Assembly: GCA_002011035.2 (NCBI GenBank)
Contig: MTLY02000003.1
Span: 93,194 to 117,193, forward strand
Reading direction: 5' to 3'
DNA length: 24,000 nucleotides
Source of the DNA: Candidatus Hecatella orcuttiae
GTDB taxonomy: Archaea > Thermoproteota > Bathyarchaeia > Hecatellales > Hecatellaceae
Below the pieces are notes generated by a model, which worked only from the letters and a program-made list of their open reading frames with translations, was not told where the DNA came from and searched no databases. The position numbers and the translations under genes are program-made. Positions 3,216 to 24,000 of the stretch are shown piece by piece (within the stretch, counting starts at the first letter, position 1; every line of letters begins with the position of its first letter).

Positions 3216-5225
3216 TTGAAGAAGAACAGGGTGAAGACGCAGCCGAGCAGCTTCGACTTGGCGGTTCTATCCGCGGAGTTAGACAGGGCGCTGAAAGACT
3301 ACTACGTGGACAACATCTACCAAGTGAACCCGACCACCCTACTGGTGAAGTTGAACAAGCCTGCCTCACCCGTCAGAAACCTCCTCATCGAAGCTGGGAG
3401 AAGGGTTCACCTCACCGCTTACTCGGTGGAAAAACCTCTGAGGCCTCCGCCCTTCTGCTCCGCCCTCCGAAAGTACCTCCTCAACGGCAGGGTTTCAAAG
3501 GTGGAGCAGCCCGACTTTGAGAGAATGCTCATTCTTCACATCTTCGCGCATGGTGAAAACTTCAAGCTGGCTGCTGAGTTCTTCGGGAAAGGCAACATCA
3601 TCCTGACGGACGGTGAGGACAAGGTGCTCCATGCCCTAGCGCAGAGAAAAACCAAGGACAGGCTCGTGGCCCGCGGCCGGAAGCTTGCCCCACCACCCCC
3701 CCTAGGCCTCGGCCAGAGGCCTTCCAGCCCGGAAATACTCTTGGAAAAGTTGAAGCTGGAGAAAGTCGAGGTGGTTAAGGCTCTTACTCGAATATATGGG
3801 ATTGGAGGCACCTACGCGGAGGAAATTCTCCTCCGAGCCGGTGTGGACAAGAAGCTGGCCGGAGGGGAGGTGACGTTCACCATGGCGGAGAGGATCTTCC
3901 AAGCCGCTCAGAGGGTTTTCCGGGAAATCGAAGACCCCCGGCCTTCGGTGGTGCTGGATGAAGACGGTGAACCCTTGGACGTCGTTCCCTTCCCCCTCCA
4001 AGTCTACTCCGGAAAAAAGGTGGAGAGCTATCCTAGCCTCAACGAGGCCTTCGACGAGTATTTCACCAAGCTTGAAACAGGGAAGGCTGAAGGGGAACGC
4101 CAGGCAAAGGTCGCCTCCAAGCTCGGGGAGCTGAAGAGAATCCTGAAGGAACAGGAAGCCAAGCTCGGGGAGCTGGAAAAGGAGGAAGCCCGGCATCGAA
4201 AGGCGGGGGAAACCATCTTCCACCACTCCCTAGAACTCCAGAGCCTCCTCCGAGAGGTGGAGAAAAACGTCCTCAACGGAAAGCCTTGGCCGGAAATCAG
4301 CCGGGAGATCGATTTGAGGAAAAACAAGGGCGAGACCCCTTACTCTTGGGTGGTGGGGCTCAATCCCAAAGACCGCCGGTTAAGGCTTTCAGTGGAGGGT
4401 TTAGAATTCGACCTCACCGTCGGCAAGTCGGTGTACGAAAACGCCTCCGCCCATTTCCAGGAGTCAAAGGACCTCCGAGGGAAAATCTCAAGCCTGAAAG
4501 AGGCTCTAGGGGAAACACAGCGGAAGATGGAGGCCTTGGAAAAAGACCTAGAGGCCCTGAGGGAGCAGCCCCTGCATCCTGTTAAGGTTAAGGAAAAAAA
4601 ATGGTTTGAAAAGTTTAGGTTCTTCTTCACCTCCGGAGGCTTTCTCGTCGTGGCCGGCAGGGATGCCTCCTCCAACGAGGCTCTGGTTAAAAGATACGCG
4701 GAGCCTGAGGACCGGGTTTTTCACACAGACATAGCAGGCGCCCCCTTCGCCGTTGTCAAAACCGGGGGGAAACAACCCTCCGAATCCGACCTTCGGGAAG
4801 CCGCCCAGTTCGCCGTCTGCTACAGTCGAGCTTGGCGGGAGGGCTTGAACGCCGCCGACGCCTACCATGTGAACCCCGGCCAGCTGAGTAAGGCTGCTCC
4901 CTCAGGCCAGTATTTGGGGAGAGGCGCCTTCTCCGTCAGCGGGCCTCGAATGTACATTCGAAACATCCCCCTAAGAATAGCCCTAGGAGTCAAGCTGGAG
5001 GGGGGGATGCCTCAGGTTTACGCTGCGCCCCCGCAAGTTTTCCAACCCCCACAGCCCCACGTTGTGTTGGCTCCGGGGAACCTGCGCGCCAAAGAACTCG
5101 CCCTAAAAGTAAGGTCCACCTTAGCGGGGAAGACGCCCAAAGAATGGAGAGATGCTGTGTTGAAGATTCCCTTGGAAGACTTCATCGCCCTCATCCCCTA
5201 CGGCAGGGGATGCATGGTAAGCTGA
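3216..5225 (+). CDS. NFACT-family protein (archaeal Rqc2/NEMF / FbpA homologue; NFACT-N, coiled coil, NFACT-R/DUF814)
   Basis: The 669 aa ORF has an N-terminal NFACT-N-like region (FDLAVLSAEL...IYQV) and a long central coiled coil (KLGELKRILKEQEAKLGELEKEEA). Its C-terminal DUF814-like segment reads FLVVAGRDASSNEALVKRY...VFHTDIAGAPFAVVK. The start must be non-ATG (TTG 3216 or GTG 3231). Confidence 0.85.
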   Translation: MKKNRVKTQPSSFDLAVLSAELDRALKDYYVDNIYQVNPTTLLVKLNKPASPVRNLLIEAGRRVHLTAYSVEKPLRPPPFCSALRKYLLNGRVSKVEQPDFERMLILHIFAHGENFKLAAEFFGKGNIILTDGEDKVLHALAQRKTKDRLVARGRKLAPPPPLGLGQRPSSPEILLEKLKLEKVEVVKALTRIYGIGGTYAEEILLRAGVDKKLAGGEVTFTMAERIFQAAQRVFREIEDPRPSVVLDEDGEPLDVVPFPLQVYSGKKVESYPSLNEAFDEYFTKLETGKAEGERQAKVASKLGELKRILKEQEAKLGELEKEEARHRKAGETIFHHSLELQSLLREVEKNVLNGKPWPEISREIDLRKNKGETPYSWVVGLNPKDRRLRLSVEGLEFDLTVGKSVYENASAHFQESKDLRGKISSLKEALGETQRKMEALEKDLEALREQPLHPVKVKEKKWFEKFRFFFTSGGFLVVAGRDASSNEALVKRYAEPEDRVFHTDIAGAPFAVVKTGGKQPSESDLREAAQFAVCYSRAWREGLNAADAYHVNPGQLSKAAPSGQYLGRGAFSVSGPRMYIRNIPLRIALGVKLEGGMPQVYAAPPQVFQPPQPHVVLAPGNLRAKELALKVRSTLAGKTPKEWRDAVLKIPLEDFIALIPYGRGCMVS

Positions 5226-11042: not shown

Positions 11043-11214
11043 AAGGGAGTCCTCCTGAACTCTTTCTCAATAGTATGCAGTAGGATAAAAGAATTCTCGG
11101 CCTTTGAAGGGGAAATTCAGCTTTTCTAGGCTGAAAACTCTGGCTTAAATCCTAGAGACCTACCCTAAAATTGAAGTAGGCTAAATATTGTAGTTTGAGA
11201 TATATTTAGTTAAG

Positions 11215-12015
11215 GTGAACTTTTTGACTCATCAAAAACTACCCAAGGATGTGCTGTGCGGAATCTACTCTCCAGGGCGGCGGCTGGTTGAGTTCGCCGT
11301 GGAAAAGAAGAACGTGGTAGGGGCTTTGGCGAAGATCTCAGGCGAAATCGCCCGGCTGGGCGTAGACGTTTTCTCAGGTTTCCTCACAGCGTATCCGGGT
11401 GAGGAGCGTTCGCTGTGGAGTTTTGTCGCCGACTTGACAGGCCTTGATTTGACGCCTGAAAAGGTTGCGGAGGAGCTTAGAAAACTCGATGTGGTGTTGA
11501 ATGTCAGATACGCGGAAGCGAGGCTCGACGGCTTGATCATCGACGACTTGCACTTTCCCCTGAAGGCTTCGCTGGGGGAAAGAAACATTCTCATACGCGT
11601 CAAGTCAGTGGCAGACATGTTTGATAGGATCTTTAAAGACTTCGGCACCGGCGGAGTGGCCATCGTCTACAAGATGGGTCTAGAGGCGGGGAAGCGCAAG
11701 GCAGAAGCCACCAAGGCCCACTACAGAGTAGACGGGCGGGAGATGTTGGAAATAATCTTGGCTGAACGGATAGCGAAAGGCTGGGGAATCCCAAGGCTGA
11801 TAGAATTCAACCAAGAAGAGGCTGAGGCTACGGTGGAGGTTCAGGAACTGTTCGAATGCACCCCCTACAAGGGGAGGCTGAAGGAAGCCCGGAGCCATCT
11901 TTTCAGGGGGTACCTCAGCGGAGTGCTGACTGTGCTGTTTGGCAGAGAGGTTTTAGTCTCCGAGGTTGAGTGCATCGCCAAAGGAGACCCCTACTGCAAG
12001 TTTAAAGTTTCATAA
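11215..12015 (+). CDS. ACT domain - V4R domain protein (putative small-molecule sensor)
   Basis: The N-terminus is ACT-like (VEFAVEKKNVVGALAKISGEIARLGVDVFS). The C-terminus is V4R-like (GLEAGK...GWG...ECTPYKG...SHLFRGYLSGVL...VECIAKGDPYCKFKV), ending in the typical Cys-x-x-G-D-x-x-C-x-F. An AT-rich TATA-like box lies at 11182..11190. Confidence 0.7.
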   Translation: MNFLTHQKLPKDVLCGIYSPGRRLVEFAVEKKNVVGALAKISGEIARLGVDVFSGFLTAYPGEERSLWSFVADLTGLDLTPEKVAEELRKLDVVLNVRYAEARLDGLIIDDLHFPLKASLGERNILIRVKSVADMFDRIFKDFGTGGVAIVYKMGLEAGKRKAEATKAHYRVDGREMLEIILAERIAKGWGIPRLIEFNQEEAEATVEVQELFECTPYKGRLKEARSHLFRGYLSGVLTVLFGREVLVSEVECIAKGDPYCKFKVS

Positions 12016-12046
12016 CTCATATACTTAAGATGATTAGGGGAAGGTT

Positions 12047-12517
12047 TTGTCCGAGAAAAGTATGTTGGAGAAGCTCCAGGGCTATTATTCCGTTGAACTG
12101 TATTCAGAAATCGAGTACAAGAGGTTCGCCGATAAGACCGATAACGTCTACGCCAAAAGCTTGTACACGAAACTGGCTGAAGATGAAAGGCGGCATCAAG
12201 GAATACTGAAGGACATCGCTGCATTCTACCATCCGGATTGGAGAGACATCCTAGTAGAGGTGAAGCCTTCGACTCCCATCCAACCCGAGAAACTAACCAT
12301 CACCTCCGAAGTTCAAGAAGCCTACCACGCTATGAAATTCCACCTGAAACTGGAGTTCCTAGCCGTGACGGAATACAGGAAGACAGCCCAAGAAACCCGG
12401 GAGCCCAAGCTCAGAGACCTATGGTTGAATCTAGCATCCGACGAGGAAAGACATCACCGCGAGATAAACTCCCTACTCCAAGCCTTCGAAAAAGCCTACA
12501 AAGAGATTATAAAATAG
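12047..12517 (+). CDS. Ferritin-like/rubrerythrin-family di-iron domain protein
   Basis: The 156 aa ORF has two E...ExxH half-sites: EIEY...LAEDERRHQGIL and LEFLAVTEY...LASDEERHHREI. This is the four-helix-bundle di-iron pattern. ATG 12062 is an alternative start. Confidence 0.7.
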   Translation: MSEKSMLEKLQGYYSVELYSEIEYKRFADKTDNVYAKSLYTKLAEDERRHQGILKDIAAFYHPDWRDILVEVKPSTPIQPEKLTITSEVQEAYHAMKFHLKLEFLAVTEYRKTAQETREPKLRDLWLNLASDEERHHREINSLLQAFEKAYKEIIK

Positions 12518-12529
12518 ACCGCCCGGCTT

Positions 12530-13582
12530 CTACTCAACTTTGACGTGGAAAAAGCTTCTTGTGCTTTTACAGAGCCAGACTAGGAAGAGCATGAAGGGAA
12601 CTTCGGTTAAGACTCCCACAACGGTAGCCAAAGCCGCCCCTGAGGCTAGGCCGAATAGAACCGTAGCCACAGCGATGGCCACCTCGAAATGGTTGCTTCC
12701 CGCGATGATGGCAGTGGGCGCAGCGTCCTCATAGGAGAGATGGATGACCTTGGAAAGCAGATAGGCTATTCCGAAGACAAGGAGGATGTTGGCGAAGATA
12801 CCCGTTGCGATCATTCCGATCACCAAGGGCTGCTCCACCACCACGTAGCCCTGCAGGGAAAACAGCACCACCAAGGTGATGAGCAAGGCGACGACGGAGG
12901 CCCTGCCCAGCCGGGGGGCAAGTCTCAAGTTAAACCACTCGAGGCCCCTCCTCTTGATGGTTTGGCTTCGCGTAATATAGCCTGCGATGAGAGGGACGAC
13001 GATGTAGACCGTCACGGCGAAGGCTATGGTCTCCCAAGGAACCACGATGCCGGAAATCCCTAGGAGATAAACAGCCAAAGGAGCGTAGAGGACCACCATG
13101 GTCAGGGAATTTATAGCCGTCATGACAAGGGTGTGCCCCATGTTCCCGCGGGCTAGGTAGCTCCAAACGAGGACCATGGCAGTGCAGGGGGCGACGCCTA
13201 GGAGGATCAGTCCCGCCCTGTACTGGGCGGAAAGCTCCGAAGACAGGAAAGGGGCGAAGACCACACCTAAAAATAGCCAAGCGAAGAAGGCCATGGTGAA
13301 AGGCTTCACCGCCCAGTTGGCGAAGAGGGTGGCGGCGATGGGCTTAGGGGTCTTCCCCGCCTTCACAACCTCTTTAAAATCAATCTGCACCATGATGGGG
13401 TAGATCATGGCGAAAAGGCAGACAGCGATGGGAATGGACACGTAAGCCACGGTCAACTTGCTGAGAACGTCGGATATCTGCGGGAAAAGCCTCCCCAAGC
13501 CAATGCCGGCGATTATGCAGAGAACCACCCAGACGCTCAGGTATTTCTCCCAAACCCCCAGCCTTCTTTCCTTCGTAGCCAT
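12530..13582 (-). CDS. acr3: ACR3-family arsenite efflux carrier
   Basis: The 350 aa ORF has about 10 TM segments. Its N-terminus LGVWEKYLSVWVVLCIIAGIGLG, the IYPIMVQIDF segment and the signature GVAPCTAMVLVWSYLARGN (with the conserved transport Cys) are those of Acr3/ArsB(ACR3). Confidence 0.9.
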   Translation of the reverse strand: MATKERRLGVWEKYLSVWVVLCIIAGIGLGRLFPQISDVLSKLTVAYVSIPIAVCLFAMIYPIMVQIDFKEVVKAGKTPKPIAATLFANWAVKPFTMAFFAWLFLGVVFAPFLSSELSAQYRAGLILLGVAPCTAMVLVWSYLARGNMGHTLVMTAINSLTMVVLYAPLAVYLLGISGIVVPWETIAFAVTVYIVVPLIAGYITRSQTIKRRGLEWFNLRLAPRLGRASVVALLITLVVLFSLQGYVVVEQPLVIGMIATGIFANILLVFGIAYLLSKVIHLSYEDAAPTAIIAGSNHFEVAIAVATVLFGLASGAALATVVGVLTEVPFMLFLVWLCKSTRSFFHVKVE

Positions 13583-13704
13583 CCCACCGGCACGCTCAGG
13601 AGCGATATTTCTTTCGTCTTTCTTATTATTGACTTTCTATTTGAATTCAATCAACTATGCTGACGCATCTATATGAGTTTGGTTCTGATAAGAAAATATA
13701 GGGT

Positions 13705-13720
13705 AAAAAAAGGCCTTTTT
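13705..13720 (-). terminator. Oligo-T tract within a short palindrome downstream of the BASS-family gene
   Basis: The plus strand reads AAAAAAAGGCCTTTTT. On the minus strand, 5 nt after the stop at 13726, this gives AAAAAGGCC followed by T7. Archaeal termination typically uses oligo-T tracts. Confidence 0.35.
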
Positions 13721-13725
13721 ACGCG

Positions 13726-14664
13726 CTAAGATTTTTTGAGCAGCTTTACCAAAAAAGGCGCAGTGATAAGCATAATCATCCCATAGACAGCGGAAGGTAA
13801 AGCCACCTCAGGGCTGAAGAATTGGAGGGCGACGGCGGTTCCGACGCCGAATTCCTTCATGCCGACGGTAAACATGTAGGTCTTAGAGCCTCCCTCAAAC
13901 TTCATCAATTTTCCAGCTAGGGAGCCGATTAGGTAGCCGCTGAGGTTTAGGATCAGCAGCAACACAGCTAACCAGATGACGCCTATGCTTAGGATGGCCT
14001 CAGCATTGCTGGATGCCACGGTGAATATCAGCAGGACCACCATAACTGACGACAGAGAGGAAAACCGCTCCCTGTATTCTGCCAGTTTTTGAAATCTTGT
14101 CCGCAGCAAGGAGCCTAAAATGACAGGTAAGGCTACAATGAGCAACAGTTCCATCAGCATTTCACCCGCGTCTACAGCCACCGACCTCCCAGCAAACAGC
14201 GAAAGCAACAGGGGCATGATGAAGGGTGCCACTAGGATGGAGCTTCCCATGATAGCTGTGGCGAGGGCGAGGTTTCCGCCTGCAAGGTAGACCATCAAGG
14301 CGGAGGTTATCTCAGAGGGAGCAACGCCGATTATCAAGATGCCTAGGGCGGTGTGGGGGTTTTCTGCCCAGAATGTGAGGGACAGAGCTACAACCGGAAT
14401 CACGGAGTATTGAACCCCCAGCGCGGCCAGTATTTTTTGAGGGGTTCTCGCCACTCTTCCGAAGTCTTGGAAGGTAAGTGTTAACCCCAAACCTAGAATC
14501 ATCACGAACAAGATGGGGTCTACGTAGTGGGAGAGAAAGGAAAATTTGGGAAACAGCACGCCGGTGATCGCGAAAACGATCACCAGAAACAGAAGGTTGT
14601 CGTTAATCCATCTGGATAATCCCATGGATAAGGCCCTTAGGGAAAAAGATGGAGGCTCAAACAA
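13726..14664 (-). CDS. Bile acid:sodium symporter (BASS/SBF-like) family carrier
   Basis: The 312 aa ORF is polytopic. It carries the motif GVAPSEITSALMVYLAGGNLALA, which resembles the BASS/BART-superfamily crossover-helix motif, and a second FTVGMKEFGVGTAVA repeat half. Confidence 0.7.
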   Translation of the reverse strand: MFEPPSFSLRALSMGLSRWINDNLLFLVIVFAITGVLFPKFSFLSHYVDPILFVMILGLGLTLTFQDFGRVARTPQKILAALGVQYSVIPVVALSLTFWAENPHTALGILIIGVAPSEITSALMVYLAGGNLALATAIMGSSILVAPFIMPLLLSLFAGRSVAVDAGEMLMELLLIVALPVILGSLLRTRFQKLAEYRERFSSLSSVMVVLLIFTVASSNAEAILSIGVIWLAVLLLILNLSGYLIGSLAGKLMKFEGGSKTYMFTVGMKEFGVGTAVALQFFSPEVALPSAVYGMIMLITAPFLVKLLKKS

Positions 14665-14735
14665 TTAAGCCGTTCGCAGGCGGCTGCCTATCACTTAGAT
14701 AAACAACCAAAACCCATATAATACCAAGCCCTTAC

Positions 14736-15536
14736 ATGTCTTTAGCCATGACCCTCCGCTCCAGACAGCTTAAAACCCCCAACCTCAGACAGGTTTCTCT
14801 CGTCTGCGGCTTCCCGGACATGGGGTTTGTGGGAAAGCAGTCCGTGGACTATCTCATCCAAGAGCTTAAAGCAGAGCTTTTCCGGGAGCTCTACTCCTCC
14901 CACTTCCCTCCCCACGTCCTCATCCGGAAAGACGGCACGGTGGAGCTGATGAAAAACGAATTCTACTACTGGAAGAACCCGGAAGGGGCGTGGGACCTCG
15001 TGTTTTTCACAGGGAACACTCAAGCAGCCTCCCCCGAGGGACAGTTCGAGGTGGTGGAGGAAGTGCTAAACCTAGCTCAAAAATACGGTGTTCAAAGAAT
15101 CTTCACTCTCTCCGCCCACGTGGTAGAGTCCCGAAGCCCTGATAAGCCCCCCAAAGTCTATGGGGCTGTCACCCATGTTGAACTGGTGAAACTTCTGGAG
15201 AAACATGGAATCGCCCTCCTAGAACGGGGACTCATCGAAGGTGTTCAAGGACTTCTCCTAGGGGAGGCTAGGCTCCGAGGGATGGAGGGCCTCTGCCTCT
15301 TAGGGGAAACTCCCGCCTTTACCACTCCTTCAGGCCGGCCTATTGTGGACGCTAAATCCGCGAGGGCTGTGTTGGAGGTGTTAACCAAACTCCTAGGCAT
15401 ACAGGTCAGCATGGCCGAACTGGAGAAGCAGGCTAAGCTGACGGAGGAGTTCATCCTGAAACTGGAGAAACTCGAGCAAAGCGTGTTGGAGAAGATGGTG
15501 AAAGCCCGACCTCCCGGGCAGTCCTACTACGTGTGA
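14736..15536 (+). CDS. PAC2-family proteasome assembly chaperone (PbaA/PbaB-like), C-terminal HbYX-like tail
   Basis: The 266 aa ORF has an N-terminal CGFPDMGFVGKQSVDYLI...ELYSSHFPP typical of PAC2/DUF75 proteins. A coiled C-terminal extension ends in ...GQSYYV, with the penultimate Tyr preceded by an aromatic residue. TATA-like CATATAATA lies at 14714..14722, and ATG 14748 is an alternative start. Confidence 0.7.
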   Translation: MSLAMTLRSRQLKTPNLRQVSLVCGFPDMGFVGKQSVDYLIQELKAELFRELYSSHFPPHVLIRKDGTVELMKNEFYYWKNPEGAWDLVFFTGNTQAASPEGQFEVVEEVLNLAQKYGVQRIFTLSAHVVESRSPDKPPKVYGAVTHVELVKLLEKHGIALLERGLIEGVQGLLLGEARLRGMEGLCLLGETPAFTTPSGRPIVDAKSARAVLEVLTKLLGIQVSMAELEKQAKLTEEFILKLEKLEQSVLEKMVKARPPGQSYYV

Positions 15537-15551
15537 GGAGAGGAAAACCGG

Positions 15552-16280
15552 TTGACGGTCTCACCCTCCTGCAAGGTCAGATTCCTGTTCAAGCCCAAAG
15601 TATCCGCCCCCACAGCTGTAGTGGGCTCTCCGGGGCTCAGGTCCATCGGCAAGCTGGCCTTAAACCTTCTCAGGGAGCAGCTTCAACCTAAGCTTTGGGC
15701 TGAGCTTTACTCCCCCAGCTTCCCGGCTGTGCATCAGACTCGCCCATCCTACGCCTCCCAGCCAAGCCTCCCCGGCTGGGCCGGCGGGTTGTTGGAAGGG
15801 AAAGCCCTAAGCCTACCTAGGGTTAAATTTTTCCTAACCTCCGCTCCGACCCCGTTGGTGGTGGTTGAAGGCTACCACGCCAACTTCCAGGGCCAATACG
15901 AGGTGGCGGAGAGGGTTGTAGAACTCCTAGGGGAGCTGGGTGTCAAAAGAATGTACGTGCTGGCCGGTTACGGGTTGGAGGGGGCGGAGGTAGCCTGCGC
16001 CGCCACCAGCCTAAACCTCTTGGAGGAGGCTAAGAAGTTCGGGCTTGAACCCGGCTACGAAGGCCCTTTCATGGGCTTCTCCGGCCTCGTCTTCGGCTTA
16101 GGAATGTTAAAGGGCATCGAAGGCCTCTGCCTGTTTGGGAAAACCCAGCCTGACCCCGCGGAGCCGGAAAACCCCGACCCGCAGGCGGCCGCTGCGGTGG
16201 TGAGAAAGCTGGACGCCATCCTAAACCTCCGCCTAGACTCTTCCCGCCTCATGGGTGAGGGAAAAGAAGGTCGAAATTGA
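15552..16280 (+). CDS. PAC2-family protein, second paralogue
   Basis: The 242 aa ORF has a TTG start. VVGSPGLRSIGKLALNLL...ELYSPSFPA parallels the N-terminus of the preceding gene, and GIEGLCLFG matches GMEGLCLLG of the paralogue. It has no HbYX-like C-terminus (ends KEGRN). Confidence 0.6.
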   Translation: MTVSPSCKVRFLFKPKVSAPTAVVGSPGLRSIGKLALNLLREQLQPKLWAELYSPSFPAVHQTRPSYASQPSLPGWAGGLLEGKALSLPRVKFFLTSAPTPLVVVEGYHANFQGQYEVAERVVELLGELGVKRMYVLAGYGLEGAEVACAATSLNLLEEAKKFGLEPGYEGPFMGFSGLVFGLGMLKGIEGLCLFGKTQPDPAEPENPDPQAAAAVVRKLDAILNLRLDSSRLMGEGKEGRN

Positions 16281-17931
16281 GTTGGGCAGCTGCCAGGAAA
16301 ACAAAGCCTCAGCTTTCTCTTTCCAAAATTTCGAGGAAACCCCCCGCCTCCAAGAAGCCTGCAGGGAAATAGCCAAAAGGCTTCTCGCAGCGCCTTCGCC
16401 AAACCGCCGGGAGCTCAGCCGAATTAAGGCGGAGGTCTCAAAACTTTACGGCCTCCCCCAGCTGCCTGCCAACGCTCAGATCCTCCAAGCGGCGGAAAAC
16501 TTAAGCCCAGCCGGCTTTCTCCAAGTTTTACGGAGGAAAGCCGTTCGGAGGACCAGCGGCGTCACGGTCATAGCCGTCATGACCGCGCCTCATCCCTGCC
16601 CCCACGGCCGCTGTCTCTACTGCCCCGGCGGGCCTGAGCAGGGGGTTCCCCAAAGCTACACCGGCCACGAGCCGGCTTCCCTGCGGGGGCTTCAGAACGA
16701 CTTCGACCCCGGGAGGCAGGTGTGGAGCCGCATCCGCCAGTTGAGGGCCATAGGGCATGCGGTGGACAAGGCGGAGCTCATCGTTATGGGAGGCACCTTC
16801 CTTTCCACGCCTCCCAGCTACCAGGAAGACTTCATCCGAGGCTGCTTGGACGCCTTGAACGGTTCACCTTCCCGCAGCCTTTCCGAAGCTAAGTTGAAGG
16901 CGGAGAGGGGTGAAATCAGAAACGTGGGTATCACCGTGGAAACCCGGCCTGACTGGTCTCGGGAGTCCCACATCGACCGGATGCTGGAGCTGGGGGTAAC
17001 CCGGGTTGAGCTGGGGGTGCAGACTCTCTACGACGATGTTTACCGTTTGGTAGGCCGGGGGCACGCTGTGGGGGATGTGGCGGAGGCGGCGAGGATGTTG
17101 AAGGACGCAGGTCTGAAGGTCTGCTTCCACATGATGCCCAACCTCCCCGGCTCCGACTGGGAGAAGGACCTGAAAATGTTTCAAACCCTGTTCGAGGACG
17201 AGGCCTTCAAGCCTGACATGCTGAAGATCTACCCGACAGTCGTCTTGGAGGGCACAGGCCTCCATGAAATGTGGAGGAAAGGAGCCTACCTGCCTTACCC
17301 CCAAGAAGACCTGGTGGAGCTTCTCGCCCGAGTTAAAGCCCAGCTGCCCGGCTGGGTGCGGATTCAGAGAATCCAGCGGGACATCCCCCTCCCAAAAACA
17401 TGCGCAGGGGTGAAGACAGGCAGCCTCAGGGAAGTAGTCCGGAAAGCCATGGCGGCTCGGGGGTGGCGGTGCCGGTGTATTCGATGCCGGGAGGTGGGGC
17501 ATTCCCAGTTGAAGCGCGGCCTCAGACCTAAACCTGAAAACATCAGGCTTAAGGTGGAAAAGTATCCGGCCTCCGAGGGTGAAGAGGTTTTTCTCTCCTA
17601 CGAGGATGTGGAGCAGGATATTCTGGTAGGTTTCCTCCGGCTGCGGAAACCTTCCCCCAAAGCTCACCGCTGCGAGGTGGGAGGAGGCTCTCTCATCGTC
17701 CGAGAGCTCCACGTCTACGGTCCCATGTTGCCTTTGGGGGTGAGGGAGGAGGAGGGATGGCAGCACCGGGGCTACGGGAGGTCCCTGCTGAAGGCGGCGG
17801 AGAAAATCGCTGTGGAAGACTACGGGGCGGAGAAAATCCTGGTAACCGCAGCTCTAGGGGTTAAAGAGTATTATTACCGGCTGGGCTACAGGAAGGAGGG
17901 CCCCTACGTGGCCAAGGAGCTCAGGGGGTAA
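16255..17931 (+). CDS. elp3: Elp3-family tRNA wobble-uridine modifying radical SAM / acetyltransferase enzyme
   Basis: The ORF has the radical-SAM cluster motif CPHGRCLYCPGG (C-x4-C-x2-C as in Elp3), VETRPD, RVELGVQT and a C-terminal GNAT domain (QHRGYGRSLLKAAEKIA). The track start overlaps the upstream gene by 26 nt. An in-frame TTG at 16282, directly after the upstream stop, is an equally good start. Confidence 0.92.
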   Translation: MREKKVEIELGSCQENKASAFSFQNFEETPRLQEACREIAKRLLAAPSPNRRELSRIKAEVSKLYGLPQLPANAQILQAAENLSPAGFLQVLRRKAVRRTSGVTVIAVMTAPHPCPHGRCLYCPGGPEQGVPQSYTGHEPASLRGLQNDFDPGRQVWSRIRQLRAIGHAVDKAELIVMGGTFLSTPPSYQEDFIRGCLDALNGSPSRSLSEAKLKAERGEIRNVGITVETRPDWSRESHIDRMLELGVTRVELGVQTLYDDVYRLVGRGHAVGDVAEAARMLKDAGLKVCFHMMPNLPGSDWEKDLKMFQTLFEDEAFKPDMLKIYPTVVLEGTGLHEMWRKGAYLPYPQEDLVELLARVKAQLPGWVRIQRIQRDIPLPKTCAGVKTGSLREVVRKAMAARGWRCRCIRCREVGHSQLKRGLRPKPENIRLKVEKYPASEGEEVFLSYEDVEQDILVGFLRLRKPSPKAHRCEVGGGSLIVRELHVYGPMLPLGVREEEGWQHRGYGRSLLKAAEKIAVEDYGAEKILVTAALGVKEYYYRLGYRKEGPYVAKELRG

Positions 17932-17936
17932 AGACT

Positions 17937-19262
17937 GTGGAAAAGGAGGAAATCTCAGGCTACAGGCATCAGGCCTTGGATGCCTTGAGGAAAGCCGGTG
18001 CGAGGGTGGGAGACAAGGTGAAGGTGGAAAGGGAAGGTGAAGCAGTGGAGGGAATCCTCATGCCCCGAACTCAGCTGGGCGACCCTAACTATTTGGTCTT
18101 GAAGCTGGCCAGCGGCTACAACATAGGCGTGAAAGTCAACGGGCGGGCGAAAGTGGAAGTAGTAGAGTCCAAGGCTAGGCCCCCGGGCGCTCCGCCCTTC
18201 GCGCCCCCGGAAGAGAAGCCGGACCTACCCTTGGTGGAGGTCATAGGCACAGGGGGAACCATCGTCAGCCGGGTGGAATACCGCACAGGAGCCGTCTACC
18301 CGGCTCTCTCCACCGAAGACCTCTACCGGGCGGTGCCGGAGATTTCCAGCATCGCCAGGGTGAGGGCCCGAGTGCTCTTCAGCCTCCTCAGTGAAAACGT
18401 CTACCCTCCCCACTGGGAGAAGATGGCGGAGGCTGTGGCTGAAGCCTTGGAGGAAGGCGCGGCCGGAGTGATAGTGGCCCACGGCACCGACACCATGGGC
18501 TACACGGCAGCCGCCCTCAGCTTCGCCCTCCAAGACCTACCCGCCCCCGTCATACTGGTAGGCTCCCAGCGGTCCTCCGACAGACCCAGCTCCGACGCCG
18601 CCTTGAATCTTATGGCGGCCGTGAGGGCTGCGGCCTACGGTCCCTTCGCCGAAGTCGGCGTGGCCATGCATGAGTGGGTCTCCGACGAGGCGGTGGTCAT
18701 CCACCGGGGAACCAAGGTGAGGAAATGCCACACCAGCCGCCGGGACGCCTTCAAGACGGTGAACGCTTCCCCCCTAGCCCGAGTGTCCGACGGAAAGCTG
18801 ACCATGCTGGCGTCGGAGGGCTTCAGGCCTCGGAACCCTACGGGAAAGGTGAGGGTGAAGCCTCGCTTCGACCCTAAGGTGGCTTTGGTTAAGTTTCACC
18901 CCGGCTTCAACCCTGAAGTCATCGACTGGTATGTGGACCGGAAATATCGGGGAATAATCCTGGAAGGCACAGGCCTAGGCCATGTAGCCCGGCTTTGTTA
19001 TTCCCACCTCCGAAGGGCCTTGGATGAGGGTCTCTTCGTGGGTATGACCTCCCAATGTCTCTGGGGAGAGGTCCGCATGACGGTCTACGAGGTGGGCAGG
19101 GAGCTCTCAGCCTTGGGAGTGGTTCCCCTAGGGGATATGCTCCCTGAAACCGCCCTAGTTAAGGCCATGTGGGCCTTTGGGCAGGTTTCCGAAAAGGAGG
19201 AAGTGCAACGATTGATGCTCACCAACTTGGCGGGAGAGCTTTCCTCCCGGATTCTCCTCTGA
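17937..19262 (+). CDS. gatD: Glutamyl-tRNA(Gln) amidotransferase subunit D
   Basis: The 441 aa ORF has an N-terminal GatD-specific domain followed by an asparaginase-like core with IGTGGTI, AHGTDTM and the GTGLGH motif. It has a GTG start 5 nt after elp3 and lies immediately upstream of gatE. Confidence 0.93.
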   Translation: MEKEEISGYRHQALDALRKAGARVGDKVKVEREGEAVEGILMPRTQLGDPNYLVLKLASGYNIGVKVNGRAKVEVVESKARPPGAPPFAPPEEKPDLPLVEVIGTGGTIVSRVEYRTGAVYPALSTEDLYRAVPEISSIARVRARVLFSLLSENVYPPHWEKMAEAVAEALEEGAAGVIVAHGTDTMGYTAAALSFALQDLPAPVILVGSQRSSDRPSSDAALNLMAAVRAAAYGPFAEVGVAMHEWVSDEAVVIHRGTKVRKCHTSRRDAFKTVNASPLARVSDGKLTMLASEGFRPRNPTGKVRVKPRFDPKVALVKFHPGFNPEVIDWYVDRKYRGIILEGTGLGHVARLCYSHLRRALDEGLFVGMTSQCLWGEVRMTVYEVGRELSALGVVPLGDMLPETALVKAMWAFGQVSEKEEVQRLMLTNLAGELSSRILL

Positions 19263-19266
19263 CAAA

Positions 19267-21198
19267 GTGGGAAGGTGTAGGAGGTTGGATGTCGACTACA
19301 GGGAGCTGGGAACCAAGGTAGGGATAGAAATCCACAGGCAGCTGGACACCCAATATAAGCTGTTCTGCAACTGCCCCACCCACCTCACCCGGGAGGAGGC
19401 GGAGACCATCTTCCTCCGCCGGCTGAGGCCCACGGCCAGTGAGCTCTGGGAAGTAGACACAGCGGCCCTCTTCGAGTTTCAGAAAGGCCTCACCATCCTC
19501 TACGAAGCCGACCCCAAAACCTGCTGCTTGGTGGAAATGGATGAGGAGCCCCCCCACGACCTAAACCCTGAGGCTGTGGACATCGCCCTCCAAGCAGCCT
19601 TTCTCCTGAAGGCTAAGCCTGTGGAGGAGATCCATGTCATGAGGAAGATCGTCATCGACGGCTCCAACACCTGCGGCTTCCAGAGAACCTGCGTTGTGGC
19701 CTTAGGCGGGGAGGTGGAAGTGGAGGGCCGGAGGATACCCCTCCAAGCCATCAGCCTCGAAGAGGACGCTGCCAGAAAGATGGAGGCCCGGGGGGACAGG
19801 GTTGTCTACCGCCTGGACAGGTTGGGCATTCCCCTCATCGAGGTCGCTACCGCTCCGGCCATGACTACTCCCCGGGAGGCGGAAAGCGCAGCTTTAGCCA
19901 TAGGAAGAGCCTTACGGGGCACGGGGAAGGTTAAGAGAGGCCTAGGCTCCATCCGGCAGGACCTCAACATTTCCATCCGCCGAGGCGCCCTCATAGAAGT
20001 AAAAGGGGTCCAGGAGCTGGGCCTCATCTCCAAGGTGGTGGAAAATGAAGTCCGCCGGCAGCTGGGCCTCCTCAAGATAAAGGAAGAGCTGGAAAGCCGA
20101 GGTCTGAAGGCGGAGGAGCTGGTCTTCGCTCCAGTGGACGTGACCTCCCTCTTTCAGGCTTCCAAGAGCACCGTCATCCGGAGGGCTTTGGCCTCAGGCG
20201 GTCGGGTTTTAGCCTTGGCTCTCCCTAAGTTGGCCGGCCTCTTAGGCTGGGAGCTGGGGCCCAACCTCAGGTTTGGAACGGAGCTGGCGGATAGGGCTAA
20301 GTTCTTCGGAGGCGTGGGGGGGCTTTTCCACACCGACGAGCTTCCCGGCTACGGCATCACCCCCCAAGAGGTGGAGGCGTTGAAGGCTCAGCTGGGCCTC
20401 AGCCCCCTGGACGCGGCTGTGCTGGTGGCTGACCGGGCGGAGAGGGCGGAAAAGGCCTTGGAGGCGGTGGTGGAACGGGTGAAAGAGGCCCTCCAAGGGG
20501 TTCCTGAGGAAACTAGGACAGCTCGCCCCGATGGCTCCACCCGCTACATGAGACCTCGGCCCGGCTCGGCTAGGCTTTACCCGGAAACAGACATACCTCC
20601 CATCCTCATCACCCCGGAAAGGTTGGAGAGGCTGAAGGCGGTGCTTCCTCCTTCTCCAGAGCAGCTGGCAGCCCGGCTTATGGAGCGGTTTAGCATCAAC
20701 AGGAAGCTGGCTGAACAGCTGGTGGACTCGGACTATCTCTCTCTCTTCGAAAAAGTGGCGGCAGAAGGCCGGATTTCTCCCTCCTTTGTGGCCACCGCTC
20801 TCACCGAGACCATGAAAAGCTTGGAAAGAAAGGCGGTGCCCGTGGACAGCCTAAGCGACGAGCAGCTCTATGGAGCCTTCACCCTCATCGGGGAGGGGAA
20901 AGCCGCCAAGGAAATCTTCCTCGAGCTGGTGGAGGAAATGGCCGCCGCTGGTGTCTCCCCCGAGCAGGCGTTGGAGCGGCTGGGCGTCCGAATGCTGAGC
21001 ATGGAGGAGCTGGCGGCTGTGGTTGATAAACAGGTTAAAGAGCACCCTGAGCTGCTGGCGGAAAAGCCTGAAAAAGCTCTAGGCCGGCTGATGAAGATGG
21101 TCATGAGCCAAGTCCGCGGCAAAGCTGACCCCAAAACAGTGGCAGGCCTGCTGAGGGAGAAACTGGAAGACCGTCACTCCTCCAGCAGGAACACCTGA
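19267..21198 (+). CDS. gatE: Glutamyl-tRNA(Gln) amidotransferase subunit E
   Basis: The 643 aa ORF has the N-terminus DYRELGTKVGIEIHRQL, LVEMDEEPP, the GatB/E core IPLIEVATAP and a C-terminal YqeY/GatB-like tail. The start is GTG 19267 or TTG 19285. Confidence 0.93.
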   Translation: MGRCRRLDVDYRELGTKVGIEIHRQLDTQYKLFCNCPTHLTREEAETIFLRRLRPTASELWEVDTAALFEFQKGLTILYEADPKTCCLVEMDEEPPHDLNPEAVDIALQAAFLLKAKPVEEIHVMRKIVIDGSNTCGFQRTCVVALGGEVEVEGRRIPLQAISLEEDAARKMEARGDRVVYRLDRLGIPLIEVATAPAMTTPREAESAALAIGRALRGTGKVKRGLGSIRQDLNISIRRGALIEVKGVQELGLISKVVENEVRRQLGLLKIKEELESRGLKAEELVFAPVDVTSLFQASKSTVIRRALASGGRVLALALPKLAGLLGWELGPNLRFGTELADRAKFFGGVGGLFHTDELPGYGITPQEVEALKAQLGLSPLDAAVLVADRAERAEKALEAVVERVKEALQGVPEETRTARPDGSTRYMRPRPGSARLYPETDIPPILITPERLERLKAVLPPSPEQLAARLMERFSINRKLAEQLVDSDYLSLFEKVAAEGRISPSFVATALTETMKSLERKAVPVDSLSDEQLYGAFTLIGEGKAAKEIFLELVEEMAAAGVSPEQALERLGVRMLSMEELAAVVDKQVKEHPELLAEKPEKALGRLMKMVMSQVRGKADPKTVAGLLREKLEDRHSSSRNT

Positions 21199-21680
21199 AC
21201 CGTCAGCGGGCTGCCGTGGGTGAAGCGGCCGTTAACCCGGACGGCTCCCCGCCCCTCCCTCCCCTGGTAGGCTCCGAAAACTTGAGCCTCCCTAAGAAGG
21301 CGGCGGGGAGGGTGGGAAACCTTCTCCCCCGAACATTTAACCTCCACCAGAAACCTTCTGCCTCGGTAGACGATGAACATGTCCGGGGTTGTCCCGTTGA
21401 CCGTGTCCGCCTTCCCAGCGTAGCCGTCGATGTCCACCCCCAGGCGAGCTGCCACATCTTCCAAGGCGTTGACGGTGAGCTCCACGGACTGCACCGCCAT
21501 CCCCCGTCTGGCTTCCCCCCTTCCTCGGCCGGAGGACTTCGCCTCCAAGGCATAGCTTCGAAAACTCTCCAGAAGAGGGGTGGAGAAGTAGACTTCCCAG
21601 CGCTGCCGCTTCTTTTCCTTGAAAGGGATGTCTGCGAGGAGGGTGAGTTCGAGGAAGCCTGGTGTGAGACTTTGGTTCAT
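21174..21680 (-). CDS. Hypothetical protein with a C-terminal PD-(D/E)xK-like nuclease motif and a possible RHH-like N-terminus
   Basis: The 168 aa ORF has an ATG start. TTPDMFIVYRGRRFLVEVKCSGEKV fits the D-x(n)-E-x-K restriction-endonuclease-fold core, as in Hjc-type IEVK. The N-terminal KKRQRWEVYFSTPLLESFRSYALEA resembles a strand-helix start of a ribbon-helix-helix. The gene is divergent from the wHTH-NurA-HerA operon, and its 3' end overlaps the gatE 3' end by 25 nt. Confidence 0.45.
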   Translation of the reverse strand: MNQSLTPGFLELTLLADIPFKEKKRQRWEVYFSTPLLESFRSYALEAKSSGRGRGEARRGMAVQSVELTVNALEDVAARLGVDIDGYAGKADTVNGTTPDMFIVYRGRRFLVEVKCSGEKVSHPPRRLLREAQVFGAYQGREGRGAVRVNGRFTHGSPLTVQVFLLEE

Positions 21681-21712
21681 GGGCCTTGGGTTTATTTAGG
21701 TGTTCGGGCTTT

Positions 21713-21758
21713 AAATATTTTACGTATTTTTACGTAAAAATCCGAAAAACTTATAAGA
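21713..21758. promoter_or_regulatory. Divergent promoter/operator region: two TATA-like boxes flanking tandem TACGTA palindromes
   Basis: A self-complementary AAATATTT (21713..21720) lies about 36 nt upstream of the minus-strand ATG at 21680. TACGTA occurs at 21721..21726 and 21731..21736, 10 bp centre to centre. The second copy sits inside the perfect 16-bp palindrome ATTTTTACGTAAAAAT (21726..21741). A purine-rich CGAAAAAC followed by TTATAAGA (21743..21758) lies about 30 nt upstream of the TTG at 21788. Confidence 0.4.
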
Positions 21759-21787: not shown

Positions 21788-22243
21788 TTGAAGGTTAAAA
21801 TCTCCATAAAAAGGTCCTACGGAGACATCGTCCTCGAAGGGGAAAGCTTCGACGACCTAGTTGAAAACCTCAAAGGGCTCCCTCAGTGGCTGGACATTGT
21901 CGACAGCCTAATCCTCCACACCGAAACCCCCTCCACCCGCAAAGAGCTGCTGAAAGGCCTGGTGGAATACACTCAAGAAGGCACCGTCATCTCCCTACCC
22001 CGGGAACGGCTCAGCGACAAAGAAGCCATCTGTCTCCTCCTTTTCGCCAACGAACCCAACCCCCTCCAGCCCAAGGAAATCGCCCGGCTTCTAGCCAATT
22101 CCGGGAGGCTTTCCGCAGGCTTCGGAGCTAGGCTGAGTGAGCTCCGCTATGAGGGACTCATCCTCAAGGAAGCCGGCTCCTACAGGCTTACAGCCACCGG
22201 GAGAACCATGGTGGAGGACATGGTTCAGAGGCTGCGGAGCTGA
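21788..22243 (+). CDS. Small winged-helix protein, paralogue A (first gene of the NurA-HerA operon)
   Basis: The 151 aa ORF requires a TTG start because there is no early in-frame ATG. It has the N-terminal module KVKISIKRSYGDIVLEGESFDDLVENL, a central EGTVISLPRERL, and a C-terminal wHTH-like PKEIARLL...GARLSELRYEGLILKEAGSYRLTATG. It aligns by eye with the next ORF. Confidence 0.55.
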   Translation: MKVKISIKRSYGDIVLEGESFDDLVENLKGLPQWLDIVDSLILHTETPSTRKELLKGLVEYTQEGTVISLPRERLSDKEAICLLLFANEPNPLQPKEIARLLANSGRLSAGFGARLSELRYEGLILKEAGSYRLTATGRTMVEDMVQRLRS

Positions 22244-22248
22244 AGCCC

Positions 22249-22767
22249 ATGGCCGAGAAGCCAAGCCTCAAAGTCCATGTGGAGCTCGGTGAAGCCAAAC
22301 TGGACTTGGAAGGCTCACCGGAGGAGGTGATCAAAGCTTTCCTGCAGCTGGTGGGCAGGGTTTACCCGGCTTACCGTCTGGTGGAGGGCTTGACGTTGAC
22401 CGTGGACTTGGAGGGGTTGATGAAAAACTTGGAGGGCATCCTAGCCTTCACAGCGGAAGGACCCGTGATCCTGATCCCAAAAGACCGGCTGGGAAGGTTG
22501 AGCATCCGAGAGCTCATCGCCCTCCATCTGACCAAAGCTTATGTGGGTAATCAGGTGGGCAGGTTGGAAAGGGTTTCCCTTTCCGTGGATGAGTTGCTCC
22601 AAGCCATAGGGGGGAGGATAGGAGCCATGGCTGGAAGGCTGAGTGAAATGGTGGACGAAGGGCTGGTGGTGAGAATAGGGCGAGGCGAATATAAGATAAC
22701 CACCTATGGGCTCAAGCACTTCCAAGAAAACATTCTGCCCAAACTCAGACAGCTTAAAGAAGCCTAA
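22249..22767 (+). CDS. Small winged-helix protein, paralogue B
   Basis: The 172 aa ORF has an ATG start 5 nt after the previous stop. It has KVHVELGEAKLDLEGSPEEVIKAF, EGPVILIPKDRL and AGRLSEMVDEGLVVRIGRGEYKITTYG. These match paralogue A block for block. Confidence 0.55.
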   Translation: MAEKPSLKVHVELGEAKLDLEGSPEEVIKAFLQLVGRVYPAYRLVEGLTLTVDLEGLMKNLEGILAFTAEGPVILIPKDRLGRLSIRELIALHLTKAYVGNQVGRLERVSLSVDELLQAIGGRIGAMAGRLSEMVDEGLVVRIGRGEYKITTYGLKHFQENILPKLRQLKEA

Positions 22768-22785
22768 AAAAGGCGGAGCGCAGGC

Positions 22786-23862
22786 TTGCTGCTGGAAAAC
22801 ACAGCTGAAGCAACGGTTCCAACCCGATGGGCGGAGGTGAGCCTCCGCTCCTTGAAGGATATGGAAGAAAACTCGGGGGAAAGCTTGGAGCTGACCGTTG
22901 CGGATACAGGGGAGGAGGAGTCGTCTCTCCTCAAAAACTGGACGACATCCTTCCACCTGCACAGCCCTTGGAATGATTTTCAGAGCAGAATCGTGAAACT
23001 TCACCCCCGTCCCCCCCGGGTTAAAGTGGCGGCTGTGGACTGTTCCTCCAGAAAAATTGGGAGAACGAAGAAAGGCTTGGTCTGCGCCTTCCGAGGCACG
23101 GTTGTTTGGAGAGACGACTTCGCCTACCGGTACCTTCGCTATGGGCCCTTCCTTTTCCACATCACCGAGCGTTTTCCTGAAACCTTCAGAGACTTTGCCT
23201 TCAGCTCCACAGTGTCTGCAAGCGCCTTTTCCTTTCTCAACCCCTCCGGCTGGCTGAGCAGGATCAGATACCTCCTAGAGATAGAGCTGCAGAGGATGGT
23301 CTGCGAGTCTTCTAGGGACTCCATCATCCTGTGGGACGGCGTCATGCCGGCGGCCGGTTTAGACCTTGACCCCGTTTCCCCGTATCTTTCCCATATCCTC
23401 AGGCTGGCTAGGAGCGGCAACAACAAGGTTATGGCCCTTGCCAAGGAGACAAGGCTCTTCTCCGAAAACGGAGGCCCCCTCCCAGAAGCCACGGAGCTAC
23501 CCTCCCCTTGCTTGGTGGACGTAGATAAGTGCGTCGGAGAGGTTTCCCCGTCCTCCCAGAGGCTGGGATACACTTTCATCGCCAAGTTCGCCCCTGACAG
23601 CCCGGGTTTCAGGTTGGATGTGGACCGCTGTCTGCCCAAGGGGGAGATGGTGGAGGCGGTGGAGCGGCTTCTAGCCAGCGACCTCACCTTCCAAGGCTAT
23701 CCGGAAACCCTGAGAGCCGCCCACATCCTCTCAGCGTTGACCCCGGTGGATGTTCTGGGTCTTCAAAGGTCCCTGGCGGGGAGATACGGGTTCAAAATTG
23801 TAAGGTCTCCTCCTGTGAGAAGGATGCTCTTCGGACCCTACGGCGGGTGGGATGACAGCTAA
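22786..23862 (+). CDS. nurA: NurA-like 5'-3' nuclease
   Basis: The 358 aa ORF shows NurA-type blocks. These are VAAVDCSS (equivalent to the xAxDGS catalytic Asp block, D85), LLEIELQ (acidic E165/E167), IILWDGVM (D184), MALAKETR (vs the K-x-S/T block) and YPETLRAAHILSAL (vs YPYxLxxAH, H313). The N-terminal 75 residues or so are acidic and poorly defined, and ATG 22861 (M26) is an alternative start. Confidence 0.75.
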   Translation: MLLENTAEATVPTRWAEVSLRSLKDMEENSGESLELTVADTGEEESSLLKNWTTSFHLHSPWNDFQSRIVKLHPRPPRVKVAAVDCSSRKIGRTKKGLVCAFRGTVVWRDDFAYRYLRYGPFLFHITERFPETFRDFAFSSTVSASAFSFLNPSGWLSRIRYLLEIELQRMVCESSRDSIILWDGVMPAAGLDLDPVSPYLSHILRLARSGNNKVMALAKETRLFSENGGPLPEATELPSPCLVDVDKCVGEVSPSSQRLGYTFIAKFAPDSPGFRLDVDRCLPKGEMVEAVERLLASDLTFQGYPETLRAAHILSALTPVDVLGLQRSLAGRYGFKIVRSPPVRRMLFGPYGGWDDS

Positions 23863-24000
23863 TGCGCCTCTTCAAGAAGGAGCATGACACCGTTCAAGTT
23901 CTGTGCTTCCCAGAGGAGACGGTGGAGAAAGGCGACTACCTAGTGGTGGAGGACCTAAAAGCCAAACGCAGCCTCCTCGTCCAAGTGGTGGACATCCAGT
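23862..24000 (+). CDS. herA: HerA-like (FtsK/HerA superfamily) ATPase, N-terminal HAS-barrel fragment; partial, continues beyond the window
   Basis: This gene is not in the ORF track. The ATG at 23862 overlaps the nurA stop (TAATG). Translation gives MRLFKKEHDTVQVLCFPEETVEKGDYLVVEDLKAKRSLLVQVVDIQ..., open to the window end. The G-D/E-Y-hydrophobic-V-E ... LLG/V-x-V-x-x-I pattern resembles the HerA N-terminal barrel, and the NurA-HerA pairing supports the call. Only 46 residues are visible. Confidence 0.5.
   Translation, partial: MRLFKKEHDTVQVLCFPEETVEKGDYLVVEDLKAKRSLLVQVVDIQ

Follow-up and report, generated by a model that had tools for sequence, protein, structure and literature searches.

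What a NurA-type nuclease and a HerA-clade ATPase are doing behind two small winged-helix-turn-helix (wHTH) proteins is the question raised by four tightly packed genes at the 3' end of a 24,000-nucleotide (nt) stretch of the archaeon Candidatus Hecatella orcuttiae (order Hecatellales, class Bathyarchaeia; contig MTLY02000003.1; the whole stretch is called the window in the following). A first-pass annotation of the sequence had regarded these genes as a stand-alone operon, perhaps serving DNA-targeted defence. The locus proved to be a lineage-specific variant of the NurA-HerA-Mre11-Rad50 cluster and not a new class of system. HerA, NurA, Mre11 and Rad50 together represent the model for the start of homologous recombination in archaea; in Sulfolobales, TFB3 and Orc1-2 act in their control, and to our knowledge little is known about this control outside the Sulfolobales. 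Taken as one combined statement, the reading that we favour, i.e., the known repair cluster in its Bathyarchaeia form equipped with dedicated wHTH regulators, has somewhat better than even chances to be correct. The four genes are arranged as follows:

21788-22243, plus strand: gene A (wHTH-A), 151 amino acids (aa), TTG start
22249-22767, plus strand: gene B (wHTH-B), 172 aa, 5-nt gap from A
22786-23862, plus strand: gene 3 (predicted NurA-type nuclease), 358 aa, TTG start, 18-nt gap from B
23862-24000, plus strand: gene 4 (putative HerA-clade ATPase), first 46 codons, ATG within TAATG

The list of open reading frames (ORFs) shows exactly the packing that had been claimed for these four plus-strand genes, including both gaps and the overlap of the herA start with the nurA stop in TAATG. 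The window stops 139 nt inside herA, and this is why mre11 and rad50 are missing from its 24 kb and why the first-pass annotation had neither of them in view. Read past the window edge on the source contig (locus L001, 1.27 Mb, assembly GCA_002009985.2), HerA reaches a complete length of 482 aa, and the plus strand carries nurA at 10001, herA at 11077, mre11 at 13873 and rad50 at 15086. The genes that begin 1,347 bp 3' of herA on the same strand encode a Mre11 of 410 aa and a Rad50 of 689 aa carrying a CPTC zinc hook; their best NCBIfam families are the archaeal Mre11 and Rad50. Since the source contig holds both genes 1.35 kb downstream, the view of a stand-alone operon was rejected.

The neighbourhood was then compared among relatives. 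Alignment of HerA against species-representative genomes gave at least 569 encoding stretches, i.e., window-type HerA orthologs in at least 569 species-level genomes; the 80 loci listed come almost all from Bathyarchaeia and share 50-67% identity with the window HerA. These 80 loci were kept and classified together with loci fetched earlier, the ORFs being assigned by hidden Markov models built from seed loci. The gene nurA adjoins window-type herA in all of the 75 loci with enough upstream sequence, and Mre11-Rad50 is encoded downstream of window-type HerA in 16 of 64 loci. The gap between herA and mre11 in these 16 loci amounts to only 3-21 bp in L008-L010 and L012, to about 500 bp in ten others and to 1.1-2.8 kb in two. 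A contiguous seven-gene array, A-B-D-nurA-herA-mre11-rad50, in which D stands for a further wHTH paralog, was found in L008-L010, L012 and L092; in L010, a Hecatellales metagenome-assembled genome (MAG), and in L092 this array comes after gatE. Because mre11 starts so closely behind herA in the closest relatives, the immediate downstream position of mre11 and rad50, which had been named beforehand as speaking against novelty, is in substance what was found.

In Hecatella itself the two halves of the cluster are separated by a stretch of different base composition:

L001:12526-13872, between herA and mre11: low guanine-cytosine (GC) insert of 1,347 bp, 42% GC vs. about 56% around it

The insert contains ORFs for two membrane proteins of 121 aa (minus strand) and 136 aa (plus strand) as well as a coiled-coil ORF of 65-92 aa (minus strand). 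It is absent from the relatives in which mre11 follows herA after 3-21 bp. No repeats flanking the insert were found, and it looks like a recent insertion that split the operon.

Gene 3 is predicted from its sequence and modelled fold to be a NurA-type nuclease of a divergent, Bathyarchaeia-wide subfamily. The Pfam NurA family (PF09376) matches the protein with 24.6 bits at a cut-off of 21, a marginal but consistent score, and two orthologs reach 23.1 and 32.8 bits. An AlphaFold2 model calculated from 69 homologs (predicted local distance difference test, pLDDT, 81.6; predicted template modelling score, pTM, 0.84) has Sulfolobus (Sso) NurA 2YGK as its top Foldseek match (E=7e-9); TdpB 8WFD_G, the T. 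kodakarensis NurA 9X1M_G and chains of the Deinococcus NurA are found among the further top matches, with EndoV and the Argonaute PIWI domain ranking below NurA and TdpB. Three residues already named in the first pass, D85, D184 and H313, do not vary among 60-69 homologs; E165 shows no variation in the 69-sequence set and a conservation of at least 90% in the 60-locus set. All four would be placed at the active site of the solved NurA structures. The NurA identity suggested in the first pass hence stands, given the Pfam score above cut-off, the fold and the three invariant residues. The sequence profile of the family gave zero matches to solved NurAs, so that this link was made by the fold search alone, and some family members already carry the NurA name at NCBI. 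As a side observation, NurA homologs labelled as [Eubacterium] cellulosolvens and Freyarchaeota are probably binning or contamination errors, and the same probably applies to L025 and L086, where archaeal nurA-herA genes (in L025 also mre11-rad50) occur in MAGs with the bacterial labels Krumholzibacteriaceae and Sulfotelmatobacter.

Gene 4 can be assigned to the HerA-clade ATPases, as had been proposed, by its DUF87 match (E=4.8e-15; the domain is matched in 30 of 30 orthologs) and its Walker A (GRKGSGKS) and Walker B (FLFAEEAH) motifs. Invariant positions comprise G165, K167, G170-K171-S172 and F363-H370, the last of which make up the FLFAEEAH motif. The best PDB match of the family profile is Sulfolobus (Sso) HerA 4D2I (E=1.7e-12). 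The HAS-barrel start of HerA read from the sequence in the first pass is a putative one, the Pfam HAS-barrel model being matched by only 2 of 30 orthologs with E values of at least 0.06. With 24.8 bits for helicase_HerA (cut-off 970) and 20 bits for HerA_Thermprot (cut-off 800), the protein does not reach equivalog-level similarity to the characterised repair HerA in NCBIfam. The top NCBIfam match of HerA is CedD, an import ATPase with an N-terminal transmembrane anchor (PMC11868833). A role in Ced DNA import was rejected, because the score is 43.6 bits at a cut-off of 600; the match spans residues 163-440 only and leaves the N-terminus outside, and the herA gene is paired with nurA.

The downstream mre11-rad50 genes, the seven-gene arrays, the NurA fold, the HerA profile and the class-wide conservation are the reasons to regard the locus as the repair cluster. 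The HerA hexameric translocase and the NurA nuclease would then act with Mre11-Rad50 in the end resection of double-strand breaks, and the window pair itself would perform this resection. In Sulfolobus and Pyrococcus, the canonical archaeal end-resection operon has the order herA-mre11-rad50-nurA (Constantinesco et al. 2004, as cited in PMC3396285 and PMC9905601). The Hecatella locus resembles it in having all four gene families on a single strand inside 8 kb, as contiguous genes in the closest relatives, and in retaining the NurA fold, the catalytic residues and the core of the HerA ATPase. It differs in its order, nurA-herA-mre11-rad50, in its highly divergent NurA and HerA proteins scoring far below the NCBIfam equivalog cut-offs, in the two to four small wHTH genes that head the operon, and in the low-GC insert that parts herA from mre11 in Hecatella. 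Owing to this insert and the different order, an uninterrupted operon in the canonical arrangement does not exist here.

What the small proteins at the operon head contribute is the second part of the question. BLASTP shows A and B to be paralogs (31% identity over 127 aa, E=2e-9), and the AlphaFold2 model of B (pLDDT 86.7) displays an N-terminal domain of about 80 residues, a winged helix (residues 86-150) and a long C-terminal helix. In the N-terminal domain, three helices stand between a beta-hairpin and a second hairpin, and the winged helix is composed of helices 86-102, 113-120 and 124-136 plus a beta-wing at 140-150. Paralogy and wHTH nature, both assumed in the first pass, were thereby corroborated. 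Protein A likewise has a beta-hairpin/helical domain at its N-terminus and a winged helix at its C-terminus. The Foldseek matches of the B model, AspA of pNOB8, MarR, CRP and PadR, are generic (E about 0.01, template modelling (TM) score to the target about 0.7). The C-terminal half of A and B, where a long helix comes after the winged helix, is built as in AspA and PadR; at the level of families, however, A and B differ from AspA, PadR, MarR and the AbiEi N-terminal domain, because all matches are of this generic kind or below the Pfam cut-offs, and no fold relative was identified for the N-terminal domain. The best Pfam match of A is HVO_A0261_N with 18.9 bits (cut-off 35) and that of B is AbiEi_4 with 13.3 bits (cut-off 25); every one of the weak wHTH matches of A in Pfam and PADLOC remains below cut-off, and Pfam, NCBIfam and PHROG gave no family assignment above threshold for A or B. 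Only paralog C of L005 passes the AbiEi_4 threshold, with 26.8 bits.

The proteins form a small family, comprising 404 clusters at 50% identity in a search of 1.8 billion representatives, and the close homologs of B (n=43) belong, where named, without exception to Hecatellales or Bathyarchaeia. Four paralog groups were distinguished, A, B, C and D, of which C and D were seen in relatives. D has about 135-160 aa and is homologous to A and B (hhalign profile-profile probability 96%, E=1.5e-9); the genome of the window has lost this gene. Orthologs of A with 48-63% identity occupy the same position in L003, L005 and L006. D adjoins nurA in 63 of 72 loci, 58 times divergently and five times co-directionally, and A/B are encoded inside 4.5 kb upstream of nurA in 30 of 57 loci, often with a further D copy before them. 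Starting from the B homologs, a NurA-HerA pair was detected within 3 kb in six of seven independent contexts. This neighbourhood survey agrees with the expectation that the small genes are kept next to nurA-herA in related genomes. No published description of this wHTH family together with nurA-herA was found in the literature. The first-pass reading as a stand-alone system that cannot be assigned to a described one was not confirmed. Collectively, A, B, C and D represent a Bathyarchaeia-restricted, previously undescribed beta-hairpin-wHTH family, which, together with the promoter elements described in the following, looks new.

The wHTH genes are also embedded in a conserved setting. The genes gatD-gatE lie directly upstream (window positions 17937-21198), and PAC2 and ELP3 are further neighbours in the 21-kb neighbourhood. 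In at least four distinct genomes, among them L005, L091 and L092, the wHTH genes stand immediately downstream of gatD-gatE, and this synteny is kept even if nurA-herA is located elsewhere, as in L091.

The non-coding DNA in front of gene A contains the following elements:

21718-21739, no strand assigned: candidate operator composed of TTTTACGTA in three exact, overlapping copies spaced 10 bp apart
21710-21717 and 21750-21757, divergent: TATA-like boxes TTTAAATA and CTTATAAG, respectively, flanking the candidate operator

The candidate operator includes a 14-bp perfect palindrome, TTTTTACGTAAAAA, and is situated in the 107-bp intergenic region between gene A and a divergent 168-aa ORF; exact TTTTACGTA copies exist nowhere else in the window. 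In seven related loci, the 130 nt preceding gene A have a density of ACGTAA/TTACGT hexamers of 16.5 per kb compared with 0.20 per kb elsewhere, an approximately 80-fold enrichment, and relatives with the same operon layout have one to three copies at the same position. In other Bathyarchaeia, the region between D and nurA holds a non-coding element of about 50 nt, TTGTGCAT-N7-ATGCACAA followed by TTTAAATA; of 65 loci with divergent D, 61 yielded it (L014-L087), some 90 nt before nurA (e.g., L019:4408-4430). Its conserved sequence, TATTGTTTATTGTATTGTGCAT-N7-ATGCACAACATTTAAATA, is an 8-bp inverted repeat that abuts the TATA box, and its core columns are mostly 80-99% conserved vs. 30-50% identity of the flanking proteins. 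A similar TGCGCAA..TTATAT string exists in L006 between D and the nurA of the other type. A scan with bacterial-type promoter and terminator models was uninformative for this archaeon.

Besides the gene identities, folds, synteny and cis-element conservation observed here, the proposed regulation involves further steps. Most likely, A, B, C and D are dedicated DNA-binding regulators of this operon. This role is suggested by the wHTH fold, the homology of D to A and B, the divergent D at nurA, the conserved elements and the ACGTAA enrichment; a regulator and its operator would be expected to be arranged like the divergent D gene and the inverted repeat next to the TATA box. The wHTH proteins would thus bind the ACGTAA repeats or the inverted repeat and control transcription: in Hecatella, the target of A and B might be the phased TTTTACGTA repeats that the two divergent TATA boxes enclose, and in most other Bathyarchaeia, D, encoded divergently from nurA, might bind the inverted repeat abutting the nurA TATA box.

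Several observations weigh against this interpretation. Two to four tandem paralogs that are maintained as separate orthologous groups throughout the class are unusual for simple autoregulators and would better fit a hetero-oligomeric complex. Genes as tightly packed as these, with an overlap in TAATG, suggest that the wHTH proteins are made in stoichiometric amounts with NurA-HerA. Moreover, A/B are not found within 4.5 kb of nurA in 27 of 57 loci, and L091 is the exception among the seven contexts of B homologs, in which the wHTH genes stand next to gatE and D-nurA-herA is located on another contig of the same MAG (L036). Finally, many Bathyarchaeia hold a second NurA-HerA pair, and in L005 this second pair directly abuts mre11, so that either pair may serve Mre11-Rad50.

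Among the alternatives, the one surviving best is that the wHTH paralogs are physical subunits, i.e., a hetero-oligomeric module recruiting, loading or gating NurA-HerA on DNA ends or structures, an idea that we regard as rather unlikely and that sets the first-pass suggestion of a wHTH heterodimer directing NurA-HerA in a repair context. Apart from the operon packing with its stop/start overlap and the retention of two to four paralogs as separate groups, it would explain why the family accompanies both types of NurA-HerA, as in L006, where the second pair and an Lhr helicase have D, A, B and C as neighbours. AspA, a DNA-spreading centromere protein among the best structural matches, and the shared N-terminal domain without a known fold match are consistent with such a function as well. 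However, regulators classically show the layout of the divergent D, with an inverted repeat resembling an operator at the TATA box, and A/B are unlinked to nurA in about half of the loci. In its most specific version, which we consider a shade more doubtful still, the A/B/C/D hetero-oligomer would be an integral accessory of NurA-HerA, for example by sensing DNA ends or structures and loading or licensing the translocase-nuclease. If true, the resection machine of Bathyarchaeia has extra subunits unknown in Sulfolobus and Pyrococcus. Overall, the regulator interpretation within the combined statement is favoured over physical subunits, these over a paralog working outside recombination, and the latter over defence.

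The second alternative starts from the finding that Bathyarchaeia carry at least one further NurA-HerA pair, here called c (HerAc/NurAc). HerA of the c-type is also widespread and has only the ATPase core in common with the window type. HerAc/NurAc could be the true recombination pair, leaving the window-type pair as a specialised paralog in fork processing, segregation or DNA uptake; we consider this unlikely. It would fit the situation in L005, where the region 11519-20102 (MAG GCA_038883335.1) encodes two different NurA-HerA pairs in tandem, followed by mre11-rad50. A single HerAc sequence aligns over its full length to Sulfolobus HerA, whereas the window HerA aligns only around Walker A, and the window-type NurA profile reaches no solved NurA by sequence. 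In addition, 75% of the loci are without Mre11-Rad50 inside 10 kb, and at least three nurA-herA pairs, inherited vertically and standing in distinct contexts, are known from Pyrobaculum, one of them the CRISPR-linked nurA-csm6-herA (PMC3396285). On the other hand, it is the window-type pair that is directly joined to mre11-rad50 in Hecatellales-type loci, and its HerA profile has the repair HerA 4D2I as top PDB match. HerAc in L088 and L089 is not located beside Mre11-Rad50 either; in L088, a third herA-nurA pair stands beside the c-type pair, which is followed by a metallophosphatase of 225 aa and not by Mre11. No HerAc homolog named after Hecatella or Hecatellales appeared among the 120 matches listed, but such names are sparse, making this weak evidence that the window pair is the only one in this genome. 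The presence of A/B was not significantly associated with that of Mre11-Rad50 (8 of 28 vs. 2 of 22 loci, p=0.15).

Multiple nurA-herA paralog pairs, including the CRISPR-associated nurA-csm6-herA, are known from Thermoproteales (Bernick et al. 2012, PMC3396285). As there, Bathyarchaeia have several vertically inherited NurA-HerA pairs, one of which has a small accessory gene inserted or adjacent. Unlike in nurA-csm6-herA, these accessories are beta-hairpin-wHTH proteins and not Csm6/CARF proteins (no Csm6 or CARF Pfam match was obtained for A or B), no CRISPR array is nearby, and the Hecatella pair is linked to mre11-rad50. In the large uncultured lineage Bathyarchaeia, the class-wide wHTH family and its operator-like sites at the nurA promoter provide a testable handle on how end resection is regulated or which subunits it involves, and on the division of labour among two or three NurA-HerA pairs.

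The weakest alternative, an anti-virus or anti-plasmid module of the Sir2-HerA, DUF4297-HerA or TdpAB type with HerA as scaffold and the wHTH proteins as sensors, is very improbable, because the pair is conserved class-wide, NurA has no PADLOC match and the IMG/VR scan found no relatives of window-type HerA on viral contigs. The resemblance to these systems is that a hexameric ATPase of the HerA family is combined with a nuclease. TdpB of TdpAB is matched by the NurA model nearly as well as Sulfolobus NurA is, the TdpB and NurA folds being similar with a TM score of about 0.55; HerA weakly matches the PADLOC models HerA and mad8 (36-49 bits; all its weak PADLOC matches, 30-49 bits), and wHTH-B and wHTH-C have faint AbiEi-type matches in Pfam and PADLOC. 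In contrast to such scaffolds, the Hecatella pair is core-like and stands in a housekeeping and repair context, with gatDE, ELP3 and PAC2 as neighbours and a physical linkage to mre11-rad50. Its vertical inheritance in at least 569 species-level genomes is not the patchy, mobile distribution of defence islands. No Sir2 or DUF4297 effector, no dnd (phosphorothioation) genes, CRISPR array or integrase were seen in the 21-kb neighbourhood and the window, and the window scans gave no tRNA, Rfam or mobile-element signature. PHROGs yielded only generic ATPase and terminase similarity, and Foldseek against viral structures only generic wHTH matches. The DNA-targeted defence module considered in the first pass is therefore disfavoured, also by the gatDE synteny, and the locus was removed from consideration as a candidate orphan defence module.

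The divergent neighbour of gene A had likewise been proposed as a partner of the module, on account of a PD-(D/E)xK-like motif:

21174-21680, minus strand: divergent ORF, 168 aa, 61% GC, sharing 25 nt with the 3' end of gatE

It does contain a D...EVK string; however, it has no match in Pfam, NCBIfam, PADLOC or PHROG, and no homologs in related loci beyond the same species. The ORF was rejected as a component of the system, since it is unrelated to the D/wHTH families, confined to one species and outside the conserved unit. It is a species-specific orphan and possibly not a real gene.

Two minor features complete the description of the region. The single tandem repeat of the window is a weak one (4117-4178, 21 bp x 3, 55% matches) inside a 669-aa ORF at 3216-5225. 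Downstream of rad50, L001:17567-19030 encodes on the minus strand a protein of 487 aa with an N-terminal signal or transmembrane segment, a long linker in which TP is repeated about 30 times, and a transmembrane anchor at the C-terminus, which is probably a surface protein.

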